Below are positions 2,178 through 19,866 of a stretch of DNA of 64,000 nt, one piece after another. Within the stretch, counting starts at the first letter, position 1. Each line of letters begins with the position of its first letter. Origin of the DNA: Minisyncoccota bacterium (GTDB taxonomy: Bacteria; Patescibacteriota; Minisyncoccia; Phycocordibacterales; UBA9973); NCBI GenBank assembly GCA_041648595.1, contig JBAZOQ010000003.1, forward strand, positions 1,042 to 65,041. Direction: 5' to 3'. A program made the translations under genes and the position numbers. The notes beneath the pieces are model-generated. The model searched no databases. It saw nothing but the letters and a program-made list of their open reading frames with translations, and was not told where the DNA came from.

Positions 2178-3731
2178 ATGAAAAGCAAAATTTTTAAAAT
2201 CTCAATAATAATATTATTTATATCTTTTTTTATTTTATTGAACTGGAATTCTTTTTCTGCTCCATTTGAACGCGATGAAGGTGAATATGCCTACTCAGCT
2301 TGGTTACTTCGTACTGGAGGCACACCATATCAAGATTCTTTCTTACAAAAACCACCTTTAATTATTTATACTTATCTCATAGGACAAATGATGAACCCAT
2401 TAGCAGTTTGGCCTCCAAGAATGTTAGCCTCTATTTTTATATTTATAACAGCAATTTTAATTTATCTAATCGCGAAAAAAGAATGGGGAGAAATAGCTGG
2501 TGTATTTTCAGCTTTTTTGTTTTTACCAATGGTTGGATTCCCTGTTTTGGCTCCATTTGCTGCTAATACTGAAAAATTTATGATTTTACCAATGATCGGA
2601 GTATTAGCTCTTTTTGTTTATTTTAAAAATAGTTTAAAATCGTGGCCATATATTTTAACAGGAATACTTTCTTCAATAGCAATTTTTTATAAACCAATAT
2701 CTTTACCAGTAATTATTTTTATAAATATTTTTTGGTTATTTAAACTTTATAAATCTTACGAAAATCCTAAAATATCCTTATTGGTCAAGCCTTTTTTACT
2801 ACTTGGAGGTTCAACGATATTAACAAGTATAATAATACTGCTTCCATTTTTTAAAGTCTTGCATAGTTTTTTTCAAGAAGTTTTTACTTTTAATCTTTTC
2901 TATGCCAGTACTTTTGATAATCCATTGGGTAATTTTATAAATTATTTAAGTAAATTTTTTCACTATTGGTGGGTTTTGTTATTTCTTTTATTTGGTTTAC
3001 TTTTTGAAAAACCTAAAAATATTTTATATTATTTTCTATTACTAACAATTTCTTTATTAACTGTATTCTCATCTCCTATTGGACTTGGACATTATTATTT
3101 AATGATAATGCCATTCCTGGCTTTACTTTGTGGGACTTTATTTAACTCTATTTTAGAATCATTATCTTTAAATAATAAACAAAAGAAAATAAGCATAATT
3201 ATTATTTTACCTATAATCCTTTTTATAATACTATTTCCTTTTAAAGAACAATTCTCGCTAAATCCACAAAAACTCTCTGAATGGGTTTATGGAACTGCTA
3301 ACCCTTTTGGTGAATCACAAGAAGTAGCTAACCATTTAGCTCTAATTACCAATAAAAATGATTATGTTTTTGTAGCTGGATCAGAGCCACAAATTTATTA
3401 TTATGCTCAACGAAAAAGTCCAACTCGTTTTGTAATTACCTATCCCCTCAATCTCCCAACTCCCTTCAGGGAACAATTTCAAAGTGAATTAGTTAATGAT
3501 CTTCAAAAAACTCCACCACAAGCAATAATTATTTCTCAAAGATTATATAGTGGTCTTTGGAATGAAGGAAGTCCTCAAATTTTTATAAACTATTTTAATA
3601 ATTTTACTTCACAAAATTATAAAATTGTGGGAGGATATGTTTGGGATAGTTCGGATAATGGTCATTGGCAAGAAATACTAAATGATAAATCAAAACAAAA
3701 TGCTAGTTTGTTATTATTAATAAAAAAATAA
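2178..3731 (+). CDS. GT-C fold membrane glycosyltransferase (PMT/ArnT-like, GT39/GT83-like)
   Basis: ~12 predicted TM helices, acidic first-loop motif (FERDEGEY), large C-terminal soluble domain; starts 3 nt after previous stop. Confidence 0.5.
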   Translation: MKSKIFKISIIILFISFFILLNWNSFSAPFERDEGEYAYSAWLLRTGGTPYQDSFLQKPPLIIYTYLIGQMMNPLAVWPPRMLASIFIFITAILIYLIAKKEWGEIAGVFSAFLFLPMVGFPVLAPFAANTEKFMILPMIGVLALFVYFKNSLKSWPYILTGILSSIAIFYKPISLPVIIFINIFWLFKLYKSYENPKISLLVKPFLLLGGSTILTSIIILLPFFKVLHSFFQEVFTFNLFYASTFDNPLGNFINYLSKFFHYWWVLLFLLFGLLFEKPKNILYYFLLLTISLLTVFSSPIGLGHYYLMIMPFLALLCGTLFNSILESLSLNNKQKKISIIIILPIILFIILFPFKEQFSLNPQKLSEWVYGTANPFGESQEVANHLALITNKNDYVFVAGSEPQIYYYAQRKSPTRFVITYPLNLPTPFREQFQSELVNDLQKTPPQAIIISQRLYSGLWNEGSPQIFINYFNNFTSQNYKIVGGYVWDSSDNGHWQEILNDKSKQNASLLLLIKK

Positions 3732-10349: not shown

Positions 10350-10826
10350 TTACTTATCATTAATATATCTAACTTCATTTGAAATCATTTTTTTTGCTTT
10401 AAAATCTTCTCCGAAACTTTTAGGGAGAACGCGGATATTGTCTGCCGGATTTACCCAAACTATTTCAGCAATTTCGTGAGCGTGAGAACGAGCAAGTTTT
10501 TCAGTATTCAAATAATCTTTTCCATTTTTTATCTCAAAGAAAAATTCAATATATTGCTTGCCGTCCGTTTGTGTAAAATTGTTTATATAAAGCAGTTTAC
10601 CTATTTCTGGTTTTACTCCCAACTCTTCAATTATTTCCCGAGACAAACATTCTTTTATATCTTCTCCCCATTCTAAATGACCACCCGGAAGCGCAGCAAA
10701 GCTTGTATCATGAGGATGTCGCACGGCTAAAAGTTTTCCTTCGTGTAAAATAATCGCTCGAACTTTGATAATAATTTTCTTTTCGTTTTCCATAAGTTTA
10801 TTATAACACCTCATAACTCCTGCCAA
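10350..10826 (-). CDS. NUDIX hydrolase
   Basis: Nudix box GGHLEWGEDIKECLSREIIEELGV; close paralog of 40046..40492. Confidence 0.75.
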   Translation of the reverse strand: MAGVMRCYNKLMENEKKIIIKVRAIILHEGKLLAVRHPHDTSFAALPGGHLEWGEDIKECLSREIIEELGVKPEIGKLLYINNFTQTDGKQYIEFFFEIKNGKDYLNTEKLARSHAHEIAEIVWVNPADNIRVLPKSFGEDFKAKKMISNEVRYINDK

Positions 10827-10876
10827 GGTTCATGAGCTTCGTCATATCTAGCCTAGTTTCATCCATATTATTTATA

Positions 10877-11272
10877 TTAAAATAAATGTTTATACTGGGG
10901 ATAATTACTTTTTATAAATTTTTTCCACTCTCCAGTTTCTTTATTGCTACTAGATAAATCCGTCTTACCATATACTAACAAAATAGCCACAAACTTGTCT
11001 TTCTTGTGCCAAGCCACAATACACCTATTCCCCGACGTTTTTGCTGATTCTTTTGAATTTACTATTCTAAATTTAGTTTTTACTATTTTTATAATATCAG
11101 CATCAACCATTGTTTCTGCCCTATCGGTGAGCAAAAGATTATCAATACGTTCAAGTTCAGCGATAATAGCACGCAATGTAACATCCCAATATTTATTGTA
11201 TTTCTTCTCAAAACTTTTTATGAAGTGCTTTTCTGTAAAAGCTTCAATTCTTACAAAATAATTGCTCTCCAT
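10877..11272 (-). CDS. Hypothetical protein, 4 nt downstream of the XRE–Panacea gene (candidate toxin partner)
   Basis: 131 aa, no recognisable motif; position only. Confidence 0.3.
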   Translation of the reverse strand: MESNYFVRIEAFTEKHFIKSFEKKYNKYWDVTLRAIIAELERIDNLLLTDRAETMVDADIIKIVKTKFRIVNSKESAKTSGNRCIVAWHKKDKFVAILLVYGKTDLSSSNKETGEWKKFIKSNYPQYKHLF

Positions 11273-11275
11273 AAA

Positions 11276-11968
11276 TTAATATACTAAACCTGGATCCTCT
11301 TGAGTAATAAGTTCGTAAGGAATGAGTTCATTTTCTCTACATAAAAAATATGGCAATTGATTGTGTGTGAAGTTTACAATTTCTTGTGTTTTTTTACCTT
11401 TCCACTTTTCTGTGATTTTTTTCATTAAAGATTTTTCTTCGGTGGAAATTGTTTGAATTTTCTCATTCTTATTACTCTCCAATTCGCTTACCAAAAAACA
11501 TTCTTTACCATTTTCATTTTTATGATCAATATGAATTTTTCCATCAGACTCAAGCTCGTCTAGGGCACGAAAGAATACATCCGGAACAGGACCATAAGCA
11601 ATTTTTCTATATTGCATTCCGCTCATACTCTCTAAGTGGTCATAGAACCAAGCAAAATCTGTCAAGTAAAGTAATTTTGCAAGTTTTGTCTTGGGAATTT
11701 TTCCATCACTAGATACATTCATCCGGAGAAACGAGAGTATCATATGTTTATACTTTTGAAGATTGGAAATATTTCCTGACGATAATTCATCAACACCAAT
11801 TCCAAAAAGCGTGGCAAGTTTTTTCGCTTCATCCAAACTAAGTTCTTGCTTGCCAGCCTCAATAGAGCTATATGTTGGTCGCGAAACCCCTATCGCTTTT
11901 GCAATTTGCTCTTGACTTAATCCGTTATTTTTTCTTAACTCTTTAATTTTTTCTATATACTTAATCAT
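11276..11968 (-). CDS. XRE-family HTH regulator fused to a Panacea/DUF4065-like C-terminal domain (ORF track gives 12070; likely true start is M at 11968)
   Basis: HTH: LSQEQIAKAIGVSRPTYSSIEAG; C-terminal KLAKLLYLTDFAWFYD…YGPVPDVF resembles DUF4065; 40-bp perfect palindrome centred on the 11968 ATG. Confidence 0.55.
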   Translation of the reverse strand: MIKYIEKIKELRKNNGLSQEQIAKAIGVSRPTYSSIEAGKQELSLDEAKKLATLFGIGVDELSSGNISNLQKYKHMILSFLRMNVSSDGKIPKTKLAKLLYLTDFAWFYDHLESMSGMQYRKIAYGPVPDVFFRALDELESDGKIHIDHKNENGKECFLVSELESNKNEKIQTISTEEKSLMKKITEKWKGKKTQEIVNFTHNQLPYFLCRENELIPYELITQEDPGLVY

Positions 11969-11980
11969 ATGATTAAGTAT
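11941..11980. promoter_or_regulatory. 40-bp perfect palindrome ttttctatatacttaatcat|atgattaagtatatagaaaa overlapping the start codon of the XRE regulator (candidate autoregulatory operator)
   Basis: Read directly; the second half is the exact reverse complement of the first. Confidence 0.5.
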
Positions 11981-12054
11981 ATAGAAAACTTGTAAAAAAG
12001 TCAAGCAAAAACTGTTGATAACTTGACATATAAAAAGATATAATGCCAACTTTT

Positions 12055-12147
12055 TTACAACTCTTGCCAAAGTTCATGAGCTTCGTCAACATCTAGTCCA
12101 GTTTCGTCCATAAGTTCTTGAAGTTCCTCCGCTTCGTCTTTACTCAT
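12055..12147 (-). CDS. Small acidic ORF (30 aa, MSKDEAEELQELMDETGLDVDEAHELWQEL) with strong SD AGGAGGAT
   Basis: Hand translation; the sequence encoding its C-terminal half (repeat F5, 12065-12111) has a degenerate, frameshifted copy at 10821-10865. Confidence 0.4.
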   Translation of the reverse strand: MSKDEAEELQELMDETGLDVDEAHELWQEL

Positions 12148-12215: not shown

Positions 12216-12515
12216 TTATGTAAATAGTTTTCCCGATGTATTCGCTAATGTTACTTTTGCTAACTGACATATTTCATCAATGGATGCGCCATTTTCTTTT
12301 AGCCCATAAAAATGATTTTCACCAAGCAGTATATACTCCCAAACCCTATCCATTCTGTCCTCGGAATTTAATTTGTTTATTCTTTGAACCCAATCAAGTG
12401 TTGCCAGTTGTTTTTGTTTAACATTTGGATCATGTAAATCTTTATCAGACTTTGTTTCAATGATATACATTTTTTCTGAAGTTTTCACAATAAAGTCGGG
12501 GCTATATAAAGACAA
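12216..12515 (-). pseudogene. Stand-alone PD-(D/E)xK nuclease-domain fragment homologous to the C-terminus of the adjacent Res subunit (likely remnant)
   Basis: YSPDFIVKTSEKMYIIETK… aligns with Res C-terminus FYPDYLVKLTGGRLGLFEVK…; only 99 aa, no helicase part. Confidence 0.4.
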
Positions 12516-12711: not shown

Positions 12712-15063
12712 TTATAACTTCAAAACTTCCCATTCATCCCAATTGCCACGCTCGCATTTTCCCCAATCAAAAATCTTGTTATCATTAATTAGCCATATGT
12801 GATTTTTTTGTATAACAATACCGCCAAATAATTTTTTATTTTTTTGACCTGTCATATATTTTTGCAAAGCTTCAGCTTTGGCTTTGGTGTAGGTTTTTCC
12901 ATCACGATCGCCAGCATCCTTAACTTCAAACAAACCAAGACGACCACCAGTCAATTTAACTAAGTAGTCGGGATAAAAAGTATAAATGCTGTTTTGATAT
13001 TCATACTTAACGCCAAAATAATCCTGCTTGTTTTCACCATTTTTCCACCACCAATCAATTTTTGAAGCATTGGTGTTTAAAAAAGTTTCAAACTCTCTTT
13101 CTGGATTAGACCGATCAGTATTTAAATAGCACGGCTCGTAAGCATAATTTTTAACCTTAATTATTTCGTCGGTATATTCATTATAGAATTGCTCGTTTTG
13201 AAGTTCAAAAGAATATTTTTGCTCACTTTCTTCAACACGCTTGCGGACTTCATTTTCTTTGACTATTACATATTCGCTAATAGCTTTTGACAGTATATGT
13301 TCAAATACAATTCTGTTTTTATTATTCAAAAATATTTTTTGGGTTAATAGAGACGGGTCAGGCCAATTTTCAGCATCAAGATTATTATTAAACCAAAGAT
13401 AAATAGCCGTTTTAACAGCTGGAACAGAACGCTTAACATTTTTAAACGATCCTAAATTATTTTTAATAACTTGTTCAAATAAAATCTGTAATTCATCAGT
13501 CGCGACATTTAATCTAGCCCAAGCATCGGGATTTACTTTTCCCTCGATCTGATCGAAACTTTTTACATCAAGAGATGTGTCAGCAATTAATTCTTGTTGG
13601 TACTTTTTAATATCAAGATTAATGTCTTTATTTTCAACTGCTTTTATATTTTCTTTAAGTTTTCCATTTTTAGTAATGCCAAAATACGCATTCGCTGTCT
13701 TTTCAAATACTGGCACAAAACTTGAAGTAATGTCGCCATAATCAGCACGAGCTTTATAGTATGATTCAATTTTAATAGGTTTGTATTTCTTAATGCGAGT
13801 TGCTTTGAGATGTTTAATAATATTTGGATTGTATTCTTCTTTTTTAACTGAAATTGACAGTAAGTTGGTATAAATATAACCCTTATTTAAAATTTCATTA
13901 TCATAATGTTTTTGTTCTGGCATTCTCAAAATACGACCAACAGTTTGTATTTCAAAAACAATGTTGTGTGTCTCTCGGAATTTAACCAAAATGTGAGCCC
14001 GAGGACAATCCCAGCCGGTATCAATGGCTTGTTTGAAAATTAAAAATTCAATTTCATTGTTCGGTTCGGAAATCCAATCAATCAGCTCTGATTTTTGTTC
14101 GGCTAACCAAACAGCAAGTTTGCCATTGCCATGTCCATCTTTTCGTTCAGTGATATTTTTACTAGCTAAAAACTTCTTAATCGCTTCAATTTTTTGCTCA
14201 CCGGCTTCGGCTGTTGGAATTTGCACCAAAACTAGAGGATTTATATTTGAACCTTCTTTTTTAAACGCTTTCAAAAGCTCAAGTCGCTTTTGAAAGGATG
14301 CTTCTAACACAGCTGTCTCTGAATCTTCTTCTAATTTTGCAATTTTTTCTATATCTTCATTAATTATCAATTCTTTTTTTATCATTCCTTCCTCAATTAC
14401 ATCTTTAGAATTTACTTTCACAAAACCTGCTTTGGTTTCAAACAACTGAGCCACAGTCGGTATTAATTTTGGCGTAGCGCTCATTTCCATAACAAGATCA
14501 GCCGAAATAATCTGTCGTAATTCTTGAGCTCTTTCGCTAGTAGCATTTGTGTGACTTTCATCAATAATCAAAATTATTTTTCTCTGTTGTTCTCTGGTTT
14601 TTTCCAATACATCACGGAAATTTAATTTTTCGCCATCTTTCATTAAAAGCACTTTCCATTCGCCAGTCTTACTGTCTTTGCTTCGCAATTTTTCCCAATT
14701 AGCCACCACAACTTCATTTTTAACAATTCTCTCTCGTCCACCTGAAAATTCTTCCTCAGCTAAAGTAACCCGAGGAAATCCAGCAAAAACTTTTTCCAAA
14801 GAGTGCTTGCTCTGCAAATGCAGTTCGCCTTTGCCAATACTCATCCACACGAAACAAATATCGTCATTGGGAAGTTCTTTGATAAGTCCTTCAATAAATT
14901 TAGCAGTCATGATAGTTTTACCCGAACCGGTAGGAGCTTGAAAAACCAAGGCTTCGCCCGGTCCGTCAAAATTTAACAACTTAACGGCAGTTTCAATCAA
15001 CTGATCAACGGCTTTTTCTTGATATGGTTTAAGATTAATATTCATAAATTTGTTTATAGACAT
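12712..15063 (-). CDS. res: Type III restriction enzyme Res subunit (SF2 helicase + C-terminal PD-(D/E)xK endonuclease)
   Basis: Walker A QAPTGSGKT, DEAH-like IIDESH, C-terminal PD…EVK; overlaps mod by 29 nt. Confidence 0.85.
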   Translation of the reverse strand: MSINKFMNINLKPYQEKAVDQLIETAVKLLNFDGPGEALVFQAPTGSGKTIMTAKFIEGLIKELPNDDICFVWMSIGKGELHLQSKHSLEKVFAGFPRVTLAEEEFSGGRERIVKNEVVVANWEKLRSKDSKTGEWKVLLMKDGEKLNFRDVLEKTREQQRKIILIIDESHTNATSERAQELRQIISADLVMEMSATPKLIPTVAQLFETKAGFVKVNSKDVIEEGMIKKELIINEDIEKIAKLEEDSETAVLEASFQKRLELLKAFKKEGSNINPLVLVQIPTAEAGEQKIEAIKKFLASKNITERKDGHGNGKLAVWLAEQKSELIDWISEPNNEIEFLIFKQAIDTGWDCPRAHILVKFRETHNIVFEIQTVGRILRMPEQKHYDNEILNKGYIYTNLLSISVKKEEYNPNIIKHLKATRIKKYKPIKIESYYKARADYGDITSSFVPVFEKTANAYFGITKNGKLKENIKAVENKDINLDIKKYQQELIADTSLDVKSFDQIEGKVNPDAWARLNVATDELQILFEQVIKNNLGSFKNVKRSVPAVKTAIYLWFNNNLDAENWPDPSLLTQKIFLNNKNRIVFEHILSKAISEYVIVKENEVRKRVEESEQKYSFELQNEQFYNEYTDEIIKVKNYAYEPCYLNTDRSNPEREFETFLNTNASKIDWWWKNGENKQDYFGVKYEYQNSIYTFYPDYLVKLTGGRLGLFEVKDAGDRDGKTYTKAKAEALQKYMTGQKNKKLFGGIVIQKNHIWLINDNKIFDWGKCERGNWDEWEVLKL

Positions 15064-16651
15064 CTAATATTTTTTGCGGTATAGGTTCTAAAGAAACATT
15101 TTTCCAGCCAATAAAATCGCTTTTATCCAAACCAAGCGGGTCAAGAGTAAAACAATAAAAGATTTTCTCGCCGTCAATTTTATTTAACTCTTTTTTAAGT
15201 TCAGATAAAGTTTTATGTTCTAAGGCATAATATACTGCCAAAGTTTTGTCGCCTTGTTGGAAAATACGATAATCATTTGTTTTTTTAATCTCGTCAAAAA
15301 TGCCTTCTCGCAAGCAAAGCATTTCTGTACATTCTTTTGTTATGCGAATTTTGAAATCGTCTTTATTGGAAGCGTTTTTAATGAATTTAGTTTTGAAATA
15401 TTTTAAATTAGATTTTATTTTTTTTAAACGAGGATATAAATATCCATCAATTATATTCCCGTTTCCATTTTCTTTGTTATAAGTACACAAAATAAATTGT
15501 CTATTTCCTTTATCGTTTTCGTTCACTAATGAAGTAGCAACACCAGTTGTTCCAGAACCGGCAAAAAAATCTAAAATAATCCCGTTTTTATTTGGATGTA
15601 ATTTAAGTATTCTTTTTATTAAAGATAAAGGTTTTTGTGATAAAAAATTTACATATTCATCAGAACTACCTTGTAATGGTTTTATTTCTTCATCTATCCA
15701 TATATCTGACACTAACACCCCTTCTCTATCAGACAAATATTGTTTCTTTGAAAATCGTCCATTTTTTGAAGTAAAAATTAAACCTTCCTTGTCCCAATTT
15801 TCTAATTTTTGAAGTGAATAGAGCCATGGCGCTAATCTACCTTTAAATTTAACCCTTTTTCTATTTTCTGTTCTTTGTGACCCTTGTGCTTCTAACTCTA
15901 TTAATCTAAATTTTCCTTTGTCATCACTATAGCTATAAGGTTTTAACGATTTTTCATCAAAAGAACGATAAATATTATTTATTTTTAATTGGTTAATATT
16001 TTTTGCAAAAAACAAAACATATTCGTGTTGGTTCCCAAGTTCTGACGCTTGGGCTTTAGGGCTATTCGTTTTTTTCCATATTATTATATTGACAAAATTG
16101 TTCTCTCCAAAAATTTCATTCATTAATAATTTTAATTGAGCCAATTCAATAGAATCAATAGAAACTAAAATTATTCCATTTTCATTTAATAAATTTTTTG
16201 CTAGTTTTAATCGCTTACTCATAAATGAAAGCCACTTACTATGACGATAGGCATCCTCTTTGTCTACATAATTATCATCATAAACAAAGTCTTTATTCCC
16301 AGTATTATATGGCGGATCAATGTAAATAACATCAATCTTGCCTTGGTGGGTAAAATTTAAAACTGACAATGCATGATAATTATCACCCTCAATTAAAATA
16401 TTTACCGGTTTATCATTTTTGTCTTTTATTTCTTTACCTTTAATTTCTTTCAAAACTGGCAAGGCATTTTCGGCATCTTTTTCAAATTGTTCTTTGACTT
16501 TTTCCTCATCCCAAATAAGCCCATACTTTTTACGAGATTCGAGTTTTTCAACAATTTTAAGAAGTTCTTCTTTGTTAAGTTTTGAATAATCCTTGCTCAT
16601 TAAAATTTTGTTTATGGCTAGAGGTACTTGTATTATTTTGAATAATATCAC
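15035..16651 (-). CDS. mod: Type III restriction–modification Mod subunit (N6-adenine DNA methyltransferase)
   Basis: DPPY motif (IYIDPPYNTG), SAM motif FFAGSGTTG; mod-before-res order. Confidence 0.85.
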   Translation of the reverse strand: MILFKIIQVPLAINKILMSKDYSKLNKEELLKIVEKLESRKKYGLIWDEEKVKEQFEKDAENALPVLKEIKGKEIKDKNDKPVNILIEGDNYHALSVLNFTHQGKIDVIYIDPPYNTGNKDFVYDDNYVDKEDAYRHSKWLSFMSKRLKLAKNLLNENGIILVSIDSIELAQLKLLMNEIFGENNFVNIIIWKKTNSPKAQASELGNQHEYVLFFAKNINQLKINNIYRSFDEKSLKPYSYSDDKGKFRLIELEAQGSQRTENRKRVKFKGRLAPWLYSLQKLENWDKEGLIFTSKNGRFSKKQYLSDREGVLVSDIWIDEEIKPLQGSSDEYVNFLSQKPLSLIKRILKLHPNKNGIILDFFAGSGTTGVATSLVNENDKGNRQFILCTYNKENGNGNIIDGYLYPRLKKIKSNLKYFKTKFIKNASNKDDFKIRITKECTEMLCLREGIFDEIKKTNDYRIFQQGDKTLAVYYALEHKTLSELKKELNKIDGEKIFYCFTLDPLGLDKSDFIGWKNVSLEPIPQKILDVYKQIYEY

Positions 16652-17791: not shown

Positions 17792-18811
17792 TTATTTCCA
17801 TCCCTGCCCAACTACTCGCATCGCGACTTGATCTTGCGGAATTTGAACGCCATTTTGTTGTGGAACCATAACTTGCTGACGACGAAATTCTATTTTTAAA
17901 TTAAATGCTTTTGAAAGTACATCACTTTCTACAAACGCCACTTTATAGTCTTTGATATTTTGGCTTGCATTAGCTCCAAGTTCGTTTTCAGGATTCCAAA
18001 TAGTATTTTGCAATTCCATTTCTTTTGCATATTCTGAGTATAAATCAGACATCAAATTTGAAAGTTCTAAATCGGCATCAACAACTGATTTAACACCAAG
18101 CTCTTCTTTTGCTTCTTTCCTGCCAATAAAATACATATGAGAATAAAGTTTTTCAGTAAAAAATTCTACAATTTTTTCAATTTCTTCTTCTTTTATTTTA
18201 TCTTTATGGCTCTTTAATAATCTTTTTGCCAATAACCGGATAAGATTATGAGTACGATTTACATTTCCCAAAGCAAGCGGATGAATTTGCGGATTGGCTT
18301 CCACAAATTTATTAAATATTTTAGTTAAGTCCTCATCGCTTTTTATCCCGAATTTATTTTTTGCTAAATCAAAATATGCGATAACATCTTCAACAGAAAT
18401 TGGAATTTTATTTTGCGGGTTAGTTGGGTCTGCTGGATTAAAAACATTTGCAGTTGAAGGGTCAATCGGAGAAATTTCCGACAAATCGCTCATTACAATT
18501 TCATCGGCACCCAAGGCGATCATGGTTCCAGCGCTGTGTGCCTTGTAAGGCACAAGTACAGAAAAAGTATCACAATATTCACGAATCATTGAAACCAAAC
18601 GCCATGGAACCATTGTGTCGCCCCCTGCGGTATAAAGAAAAAGGTCAATTTTAGTAGTTTTTCCAATTTTACGAAGTTGCTCGCTAATAATCGGAATTAT
18701 ATCCATAGCTACACGAGCATTAACTGGTCCTTGTCTGTCGCTTGTTATATAAGTAATGACTTTTGACCCTCTTTTTTCTTCAATTTTTTTGATTAGTTCT
18801 ATTTTTGACAT
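17792..18811 (-). CDS. ClpP-fold serine protease of the SDH (serine dehydrogenase proteinase)/S49-like family
   Basis: …LFLYTAGGDTMVPWRLVSMIR…AHSAGTMIALGADEIVMS… resembles ClpP/SppA crotonase-fold active-site region; 339 aa. Confidence 0.55.
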   Translation of the reverse strand: MSKIELIKKIEEKRGSKVITYITSDRQGPVNARVAMDIIPIISEQLRKIGKTTKIDLFLYTAGGDTMVPWRLVSMIREYCDTFSVLVPYKAHSAGTMIALGADEIVMSDLSEISPIDPSTANVFNPADPTNPQNKIPISVEDVIAYFDLAKNKFGIKSDEDLTKIFNKFVEANPQIHPLALGNVNRTHNLIRLLAKRLLKSHKDKIKEEEIEKIVEFFTEKLYSHMYFIGRKEAKEELGVKSVVDADLELSNLMSDLYSEYAKEMELQNTIWNPENELGANASQNIKDYKVAFVESDVLSKAFNLKIEFRRQQVMVPQQNGVQIPQDQVAMRVVGQGWK

Positions 18812-18978: not shown

Positions 18979-19866
18979 TTATTTCTTTTTGTTTTCTACT
19001 CCAATTTTCCATACATCTTTTTCTAAAAAAGCTTCGATAGTTTGACGTTTTGCTTTATTTATTAAATTCGAATGAGAAAAACTATACTCTTTGGCATAGT
19101 CAGACAAATTTATAATTGTTTTATTTTCTAAATATGCAAGGCGTCTATGGTAACTGTTTGTAAGTGCCTTTGCGACAATAGTTTCCATAATTTTTGTACC
19201 GCCCTTCGTTTGAAATTCTTTAAAGGCATCGTAATACATTGCCCTATCAATAAATTTAATGTTTATGGATACATAGCCACTACGCATTAAAAGATAATTG
19301 TTCAAGACACGTCCAATACGACCATTCCCGTCACAAAATGGATGCACATATTCAAAACCTAAATGAAATTTAGCAATCCTCTTTATTATAGAATCTCTAG
19401 TATTTGAATTATATTCTGTCAGAACTTTTTGTAAACGATCAGTAACTTCTAATGGATTCGGTGCAACATAATCACCTACCCGCACCCATTCATTTTCTTT
19501 TCTAAATCTTCCGGCTATATCATCACGAATATTTAAAATAAGCATTTTATGCAGAGACAAAATAATATCAAAATTTAATTCACTTTCTTTTGACTTGTTT
19601 TCTATATATGCCACCACACGAGCAAGATTTTTAGCTTCAAAAATTTCTCTCTCTGATATATACCTGTCAAGTTCTATTTGAAGTAAAATCTTGTCAGTTT
19701 CTTCAAGTGAAAGAGTGCTATTTTCGATAGCATTTGAGTTGTACACCTGATCAGAAACTTCCGCTTCTGTAAGTATCTTCAAAAGAGACTCTTTACCAAC
19801 GATAGCCTTGTAGTATCTTTCCCGTAAATTTTGTATATTTTTGTATATTTTAAACGTATTTGCCAT
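18979..19866 (-). CDS. Fic/Doc family protein
   Basis: Canonical Fic motif HPFCDGNGRIGR. Confidence 0.85.
   Translation of the reverse strand: MANTFKIYKNIQNLRERYYKAIVGKESLLKILTEAEVSDQVYNSNAIENSTLSLEETDKILLQIELDRYISEREIFEAKNLARVVAYIENKSKESELNFDIILSLHKMLILNIRDDIAGRFRKENEWVRVGDYVAPNPLEVTDRLQKVLTEYNSNTRDSIIKRIAKFHLGFEYVHPFCDGNGRIGRVLNNYLLMRSGYVSINIKFIDRAMYYDAFKEFQTKGGTKIMETIVAKALTNSYHRRLAYLENKTIINLSDYAKEYSFSHSNLINKAKRQTIEAFLEKDVWKIGVENKKK

Follow-up and report, generated by a model that had tools for sequence, protein, structure and literature searches.

A putative autorepressed, leaderless PanA-PanT toxin-antitoxin cassette with a RelE/HigB2-like partner protein in a genome of Candidatus Paceibacterota

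Background

The PanAT toxin-antitoxin (TA) systems were defined by Kurata et al. 2022 (PNAS, PMC8832971), who reported helix-turn-helix (HTH) N-terminal domains in 343 PanA antitoxins and whose list of partners includes ParE, RelE and HigB-like toxins. Their PanT cluster T14/pT15 (Dataset S1) comprises hypothetical proteins with a 99.7 % HHpred match to HigB-2, encoded in the order antitoxin-toxin together with an HTH-PanA, in hosts such as Ca. Saccharimonas aalborgensis, a TM7, Ca. Cryosericum, Pedobacter and Flexibacter. In the account of Ernits et al. 2023, toxins are neutralised either by the tail or by the Panacea domain, both modes occurring in other PanAs. We analyzed a gene pair of this kind in a stretch of 64,000 nucleotides (nt) from contig JBAZOQ010000003.1 (hereafter the window, meaning the stretch at its full length); it consists of panA, which encodes a regulator with HTH and Panacea domains, and panT, which encodes a putative toxin of 131 amino acids (aa).

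The window pair and T14 agree in every attribute compared: they share HigB-2 as the best match, the antitoxin-toxin order, the tight spacing or overlap of the genes, the HTH-Panacea antitoxin, and hosts from the Candidate Phyla Radiation (CPR). The pairing of an HTH-PanA with a HigB-2-like toxin is already catalogued, CPR included (Kurata et al. 2022, T14). Members of the window's family come almost exclusively from Paceibacterota and from related CPR metagenome-assembled genomes (MAGs), which lie outside the RefSeq-based census of that paper, and the searched passages of Kurata et al. 2022 and Ernits et al. 2023 do not mention an architecture of promoter, leaderless start and start-codon palindrome such as the one described below. 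New here are the fold assignment of the family, its breadth, the boundaries of the cassette, and a conserved, predicted leaderless promoter with a covarying dyad; neither a new toxin class nor a new principle is proposed. We read the pair as a type II TA cassette of the PanA-PanT (RelE/HigB2-like) kind that is autorepressed and leaderless and has inserted in a defence island, an interpretation to which we assign a probability of about 70 %.

Results

An HTH-Panacea gene and its partner form a conserved pair

The two genes and the parts of PanA are located as follows:

11968..11276, minus strand: panA, 230-aa antitoxin/regulator with XRE-type HTH, Panacea (DUF4065) domain and conserved C-terminal tail (open reading frame (ORF) with ATG start; Pfam)
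11783..11947, minus strand: HTH domain of PanA, aa 8-62 (Pfam HTH_3)
11357..11683, minus strand: Panacea (SocA_Panacea, DUF4065) domain of PanA, aa 96-204 (PF13274)
11279..11356, minus strand: conserved C-terminal tail of PanA, aa 205-230, candidate toxin-binding segment (column conservation)
11272..10877, minus strand: panT, 131-aa divergent protein of predicted RelE/ParE fold (HigB2-like), putative toxin (ORF; AlphaFold2 (AF2) and Foldseek)

A first-pass annotation, made from the letters of the window, had described the regulator as an XRE-HTH protein with a Panacea-like C-terminal half and a tightly linked partner devoid of recognisable domains. The search with the DUF4065 hidden Markov model confirmed the former: PF13274 matches PanA with E = 3.6e-14 and 54.1 bits (gathering cut-off 25.7) over profile positions 1-109 of 113, and HTH_3 matches aa 8-62 at 6.2e-19. 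The same precomputed Panacea domain is carried by PanA homologues. The partner gene is indeed adjacent, with a gap of 3 nt rather than the 4 nt initially given: the three bases TTT separate the panA stop codon TAA (11278-11276) from the ATG of panT, and both genes share a reading frame. The 131-aa protein, as initially noted, has no match in Pfam, NCBIfam or PADLOC, and only a marginal one in PHROG. The public protein P0289 (Candidatus Paceibacterota bacterium; 230 aa) is identical to PanA of the window. A TTG-initiated panA ORF of 264 aa (extending to 12070) was rejected, as the public calls are of 230 aa and the extension crosses the conserved promoter.

A scan with close homologues of one genome per GTDB species yielded 60 loci (numbered with the prefix L below) that encode the 131-aa protein, nearly all of them in Patescibacteria: Paceibacterota, Nomura-, Zambryski-, Campbell-, Adler-, Taylor-, Kaiser- and Andersenbacteria, and MAGs labelled Saccharibacteria. 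Wherever a locus includes upstream DNA, panT is immediately preceded by an HTH-Panacea gene (~230 aa), and the 57 complete species-level pairs are adjacent without exception, with a gap or overlap of a few nt; the partner proposed in the first-pass annotation thus recurs in homologous loci. Even a relative with only 36 % identity (P0271) is paired with an HTH-Panacea gene. At 90 % identity the PanT family forms more than 547 clusters, all unnamed or "hypothetical" (one carries an unrelated JGI label), and their named hosts belong, with few exceptions, to CPR lineages; at 50 % identity there are 163 clusters. Cluster look-ups of 20 distant relatives gave a single organism name, Saccharimonadales.

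Nucleotide homology between the window and the other loci is restricted to about 10877-12035, its 5' end falling at about 12030-12037, and no flank is syntenic. To judge from these limits, the element appears to be a self-contained, horizontally mobile cassette of about 1.16 kb. Searches with tblastn against PLSDB and INPHARED found no match on plasmids or phages.

The best-conserved regions of PanA across the 57 loci are the Panacea domain and the C-terminal tail, the latter (aa 205-230) having the highest mean column conservation (0.80) of four PanA regions. In the AF2 model of the PanA monomer (mean predicted local distance difference test score, pLDDT, 77.5) the tail has a pLDDT of only 54-65. 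Within the Panacea domain the block SMSGMQYRKIAYGPVPD (aa 114-130, window about 11579-11629) hardly varies among close homologues, while its residues 117-127 are the least confident stretch of the model (pLDDT below 50). Being conserved yet poorly modelled, the tail and the loop 117-127 are typical of partner-dependent segments; on the model, SMSGMQYRKIAYGPVPD is a candidate loop through which the Panacea domain could bind a ligand or partner, and the predicted toxin-holding parts of PanA are its tail, its Panacea domain or the two together.

In L016 the toxin gene is directly followed by another PanA-like gene (2384-3049), a distant one with 27 % identity to PanA of the window; this arrangement suggests tandem PanA modules.

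PanT is predicted to have a RelE-type fold

We modelled PanT with AF2 using 34 homologues and obtained a model with pLDDT 86.5 and a predicted template-modelling score (pTM) of 0.83. Its topology (beta-alpha-alpha, four strands and two C-terminal helices) is that of the RelE-type fold, and the top 30 Foldseek matches in the PDB are almost only toxins of the RelE/ParE superfamily or their complexes. The best one is P. horikoshii RelE (1wmi; E = 2.2e-4, probability 1.0, TMt 0.74), and the others include V. cholerae HigB2, PfiT, YoeB, E. coli RelE and several HigB proteins. A family profile built from 79 diverse relatives (mean column identity 36 %) has V. cholerae HigB-2 as its best PDB sequence match, albeit a weak one (E = 0.027 over 41 residues); SaksSgnRcIv...LLvYsKnd is aligned with GkrGGsRIIy...LLtIYGKNE, which gives the motif SGxR...LLxYxK, and this block is the most conserved of the PanT family. 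The model-based assignment of the predicted fold to the RelE/ParE superfamily, HigB2-like, is solid. The suggestion of the first-pass annotation that the partner could be a new toxin is not upheld by this fold and profile match, HigB-2-like PanTs having been catalogued before. In the alignment of the 79 sequences E112 is invariant and K23, K65, S76, S80, G81, R83, Y101, K103 and T113 are nearly so; these residues look like an active site or an RNA-binding surface.

A conserved predicted promoter overlaps a palindrome centred on the panA start codon

Upstream of panA we identified the following elements:

11976..11981, minus strand: -10 box TATACT, in the left palindrome arm, ending 7 nt before the panA ATG (promoter pattern)
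11999..12004, minus strand: -35 box TTGACT, 17-nt spacer (promoter pattern)
11949..11988: perfect 20+20-bp palindrome, predicted operator over the -10 box and the transcription start (palindrome search)
12013..12030, minus strand: distal conserved element TATGTCAAGTTATCAACA, family consensus aTGTCAAnTnnTCGACa (upstream alignment)

The promoter of the window, TTGACT-17-TATACT (12004..11976), is of sigma-70 type and matches 10 of 12 consensus positions. The aligned upstream regions share the pattern aTGTCAAnTnnTCGACa - (6-8 nt) - GCTTGACTTtTTTACA - N - TATACT - 7 nt - ATG, and GCTTGACT at -35 is nearly invariant across loci. The promoter pattern occurs in 51 of the 55 loci compared; the distance from the end of the -10 box to the ATG is 5-9 nt in 44 of them, most commonly 7 nt. 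A Shine-Dalgarno-like 4-mer occurs in only one of these 55 loci, and panA of the window has no Shine-Dalgarno motif. Since the -10 box ends 7 nt before the ATG and a Shine-Dalgarno motif is lacking, the mRNA is predicted to be leaderless, and the pair may be regarded as a predicted leaderless, autorepressed panA-panT operon.

The distal element, an imperfect palindrome of 16-18 bp, lies just 5' of the -35 box and marks the 5' limit of the conserved cassette. It occupies the same position in L001-L046, is a perfect palindrome in L004, L005, L006 and L022, and contains TGTCAA, the reverse complement of TTGACA. Candidate roles are those of a second operator, an UP-like element or a divergent promoter. 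A divergent promoter formed by the mirrored -10 box was rejected, as inspection by eye revealed no acceptable -35 box on the opposite strand. We also observed a 17-nt inverted repeat (11985-12001 / 12049-12065; 88 % complementary, 47 nt apart) between the panA promoter spacer and the 3' end of an upstream ORF of 30 aa; it may be due to chance.

The 40-bp perfect palindrome reported in the first-pass annotation is real, but it lies at 11949-11988, 8 nt away from the position given there (11941-11980). Its dyad axis falls between 11968 and 11969, so that the ATG is formed by the first three bases of the right arm, and the dyad extends over the -10 box, the predicted start site and panA codons 1-7. 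From the base composition about 7.6e-7 palindromes of this length are expected in the window; it is unique there, the next-longest perfect palindrome having arms of 9 nt. The dyad is present at the start codon of most loci whose PanA shares about 63 % identity or more with that of the window. In an alignment of 31 such loci 82.8 % of the arm cells are complementary, compared to 29-54 % when the partner is slid by 1-3 columns. Eleven of the 20 pairs have changed on both sides, in 48 cells, and none of 500 shuffles reached any of the five measures of covariation. Examples of arms that have changed together are TTAATC/GATTAA, TTGTTC/GAACAA, TGGCTC/GAGCCA and GTGTATGCTTGCTC/GAGCATGCATACAC. The covarying, variable positions are +-5/6 and +-15/16 from the axis, and the cores ATATAC/GTATAT, about 11-12 bp off the axis, are nearly invariant. 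In some loci two extra codons follow the ATG, and there the right arm is shifted 6 nt downstream while the distance between the -10 box and the ATG remains 7 nt. A conserved, covarying element at the promoter fits the autoregulation that had been suggested from the palindrome alone. We rejected the palindrome as an intrinsic terminator, since no T-run follows it in either direction.

Proposed mode of action and the observations that weigh against it

The arrangement corresponds to that of a type II TA operon, with a DNA-binding-type antitoxin first, the toxin directly 3' of it, and a palindromic site at the promoter. In our model a single sigma-70-type promoter would serve both genes, and panT would probably be translationally coupled to panA. 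The 40-bp dyad would be the autorepression operator, the predicted target of PanA dimers (possibly two, or a PanA-PanT complex), and PanA bound to it would exclude RNA polymerase. PanT would most probably be a ribosome-dependent mRNA endonuclease that, once freed, arrests translation. We infer from the comparisons above the toxicity and RNase activity of PanT, its neutralisation via the PanA tail or Panacea domain, DNA binding by PanA and the leaderless start.

Several observations weigh against this model, some of them concerning the operator. Among the 31 PanA sequences whose loci bear the palindrome, GVSRPTY never varies and the recognition-helix region next to it (...xAIExGKQ) hardly does (over the 57 loci this region is strongly conserved, with some variation). 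The recognition helix thus remains unchanged while operator positions covary; therefore co-evolution of protein and operator does not explain the covariation of the arms, and we rejected it. Possible causes are selection for symmetry itself, indirect readout, or neutral correction by template switching. The most distant subgroup (L047-L062) has no start-codon palindrome and has a leader of 22-29 nt. Finally, a classical operator for an HTH dimer would be about as large as the distal element (12013-12030), which could be an alternative, an additional or indeed the real PanA site.

Other observations concern the toxin. No curated Pfam model of RelE, ParE_toxin, HigB or YoeB, nor any NCBIfam model, detects PanT of the window, and PF06296 RelE is touched by only one of the 79 relatives (E = 0.014). 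Besides the weak profile match to HigB-2, the hhalign comparison with E. coli RelE is weak as well (E = 0.013, probability 3 %). It pairs R83 of PanT with the catalytic R61 of RelE and K65 with K54, both PanT residues being nearly invariant, and clear equivalents of R81 and Y87 of RelE were not found; the conserved Y101, K103 and E112 are candidates that have no placement on the catalytic residues of RelE. The active site is therefore not established by the sequence, RNase activity is our inference, and a ParE-like or non-catalytic role of PanT is possible. The T14-type pairs, which would be the nearest precedent, are marked "notest" in Kurata et al. 2022 (PMC8832971).

The relative conservation of the two proteins is a further point. 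In type II modules the toxin is usually more conserved than the antitoxin. The reverse holds here: PanA is the more conserved protein in 54 of the 57 loci, with a median identity to the window of 73.5 % compared to 63.4 % for the toxin.

Genomic context and alternative explanations

The cassette is located in a genome of Candidatus Paceibacterota (CPR/Patescibacteria) and adjoins a type III restriction-modification (R-M) system. Its surroundings include the following features:

19866..18979, minus strand: Fic/DOC-family protein, a few kb upstream
18811..17792, minus strand: ClpP-like SDH protease, a few kb upstream
16651..15035, minus strand: type III mod (Pfam/PADLOC)
15063..12712, minus strand: type III res, 783 aa (Pfam/PADLOC)
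12515..12216, minus strand: 99-aa res-like orphan fragment (PADLOC REase_III, positions 786-849 of 871, E = 8e-7)
12060..12113, minus strand: upstream copy of a 54-nt direct repeat, 3' part of the 30-aa ORF MSKDEAEELQELMDETGLDVDEAHELWQEL (12147..12055) (repeat search, z = 30)
10815..10867, minus strand: downstream, degenerate copy of the repeat, with about 5 substitutions and a 1-nt deletion (repeat search, z = 30)
10826..10350, minus strand: NUDIX gene, downstream of the cassette

The 99-aa fragment, located just downstream of the complete res, resembles type III restriction enzymes only at their C-terminal end and may be the remnant of a second res or a split C-terminus. The two 54-nt repeats bracket the cassette, the downstream copy being frameshifted and overlapping the start region of the NUDIX gene. 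Among the homologous loci, flanking repeats are found only in the window; thus, a target-site duplication as a general feature of the cassette was rejected, and the repeats are apparently a local insertion scar of no recent date, not a property of the element. We also rejected a conserved third gene: the small divergent ORFs upstream of panA belong to three unrelated families, each found in a few loci. Examples (71-77 aa, minus strand, 5' of panA) are located in L001 (4944-5159), L066 (6934-7158) and L068 (1698-1931); one family is DUF2188, and one recurs in L013, L023, L039 and L041, with no member in the window.

At other loci the cassette lies inside or beside type I R-M systems, GmrSD, an EcoRI-like methylase and a SLFN-type helicase. 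A survey of the genes around the cassette in 50 species (150 ORFs, up to 3 kb away) shows as the most common neighbours ResIII (11) and the SLFN-g3 helicase (8, of which 5 also have Peptidase_S24), followed by type I, IIG and IV R-M systems, GajB, DRT, AbiO/Nhi-like proteins, Fic and AAA_21. The association with defence islands is qualitative, these being raw counts. The large SLFN-g3-helicase protein, often with a C-terminal Peptidase_S24, is encoded just 5' of the cassette in seven or eight species (L001 2494-4815, and upstream ORFs of L006, L009, L015, L036, L040 and L051; mutual identity 39-79 %) and may be a linked defence gene or mark a shared insertion hot spot.

This recurrence of defence genes beside the cassette, in the window and elsewhere, speaks for a role in phage defence by abortive infection, in which the Panacea domain would sense a phage cue, in place of a classical addiction or stress response; such a role would be a layer compatible with our model. 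Panacea has been proposed as a sensor domain (Ernits et al. 2023), and the invariant loop SMSGMQYRKIAYGPVPD is poorly modelled. On the other hand, the neighbour counts are raw, TA cassettes also gather in defence islands simply because these are insertion hot spots, and no phage or plasmid copy was found in PLSDB or INPHARED. We therefore hold a role in phage defence to be possible but tentative; stabilisation of the island would be another conceivable function.

That PanT has the RelE/ParE fold without being an mRNA endonuclease, acting instead as a ParE-like gyrase poison or as a non-toxic co-repressor or partner of PanA, seems unlikely. Only two of the five RelE catalytic positions can be matched, PanT has two extra C-terminal helices, and members of this fold differ in their target, RNA or gyrase (Ernits et al. 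2023). Nevertheless, the closest structures and the only profile match are mRNases (RelE, HigB2, YoeB, HigB) and not ParE, and the invariant E112 together with the near-invariant residues argues for an enzyme or a precise RNA-binding surface.

We consider it quite unlikely that the 40-bp palindrome is, instead of an operator, a nucleic-acid structure (a cruciform, or a hairpin in single-stranded DNA or read-through RNA) that gates expression by hiding the -10 box or the AUG. A perfect, AT-rich, loop-free palindrome is ideal for cruciform extrusion, as RNA the 40-mer has a folding energy of -19.7 kcal/mol with the AUG in or beside the loop, and the arms covary where the recognition helix stays constant. 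However, with the conserved -10 box in the left arm and the predicted start at the ATG, the transcript of the operon itself would contain only the right arm; there is no U-tract after the palindrome in either direction, hence no terminator; and the near-invariant ATATAC/GTATAT cores fit protein contacts. Moreover, the arms of long palindromes can covary by neutral template-switch correction. A related idea, that the dyad is a structure-forming switch (cruciform or hairpin) beyond its function as a repressor site, the symmetry itself being under selection, arises because both arms change together in palindrome-bearing loci whose recognition helix is invariant; half of this dyad also encodes PanA residues 1-7. 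We regard it as very unlikely. If it were true, then together with the higher conservation of PanA it would mean that the cassette is gated by DNA topology or strandedness, e.g. during phage attack or DNA uptake, with Panacea as a sensing hub.

RelE-type toxins are classically inhibited by a C-terminal segment of the antitoxin, which speaks against a proteolytic route of neutralisation. It is highly improbable that PanA is a SocA-like proteolytic adaptor, handing an intrinsically unstable toxin over to a protease instead of inhibiting it stoichiometrically and using its HTH only for transcription: the family is named after SocA (Pfam name SocA_Panacea), and a conservation above that of the toxin is expected for a protein with several partners, but PanA has a conserved, disordered-looking C-terminal tail of the inhibitory kind and the PanA-PanT complexes of Kurata et al. 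2022 indicate direct neutralisation.

Comparison with known systems

The autorepressed PanA-PanT cassette, as we interpret it, adds to the PanAT class a large, essentially CPR-specific family that lies outside the Pfam, NCBIfam and PADLOC models searched. The about 45 species-level loci with conserved promoter, leaderless geometry and covarying dyad provide a clean natural data set for the self-control of HTH-Panacea proteins. The TA and defence biology of Patescibacteria, episymbionts with small genomes, is almost unexplored, and its repeated siting in restriction and defence islands makes the cassette a reasonable first candidate for tests.

The predicted toxin fold and the SGxR...LLxYxK motif relate the pair to HigB2-HigA2 of V. 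cholerae and to RelBE and YoeB-YefM. Like HigA, PanA would be an HTH antitoxin that autoregulates its synthesis at a palindromic operator; the PDB entry 8a0x represents a HigB2-HigA2 tetramer on operator DNA. Unlike in these systems, the antitoxin of the window carries a Panacea domain and is encoded first, the order of the higBA genes being usually toxin first. PanT, at 131 aa, exceeds the toxins of these systems in length; its sheet contains an insertion of 11 residues, and two helices follow at the C-terminus.

In Caulobacter crescentus, SocA acts as a ClpXP adaptor for the toxin SocB, whose target is the DNA polymerase clamp. SocAB resembles the window pair in having the same Panacea/SocA domain in the antitoxin, and differs from it in that the partner of PanA is RelE-like and PanA has an HTH.

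The HTH of PanA is closest to the controller (C) proteins of R-M systems (C.AhdI, C.PvuII, C.Esp1396I): Foldseek matches it to C.AhdI (1y7y; 38 % identity, TMt 0.81), and the PADLOC model Control_protein detects it at 5e-12. The genes of C proteins are commonly leaderless and have operators of roughly 35 bp that bind two dimers (PMC2632904), and the similarity extends to the autoregulated promoter, the long symmetric site of 35-40 bp and the leaderless mRNA (the latter predicted in the case of panA), which makes the C proteins a useful working analogy. In contrast to C proteins (~80 aa, single-domain), PanA has 230 aa including a Panacea domain and is followed by a RelE-like gene and not by that of a restriction enzyme, and its dyad is centred on the start codon rather than about 18 nt upstream, without the GTG-centred double-box motif of the C-box. 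On account of its size, the Panacea domain, the RelE-like downstream gene, the location of res upstream as a separate unit and the absence of a C-box, we rejected PanA as an R-M controller protein.

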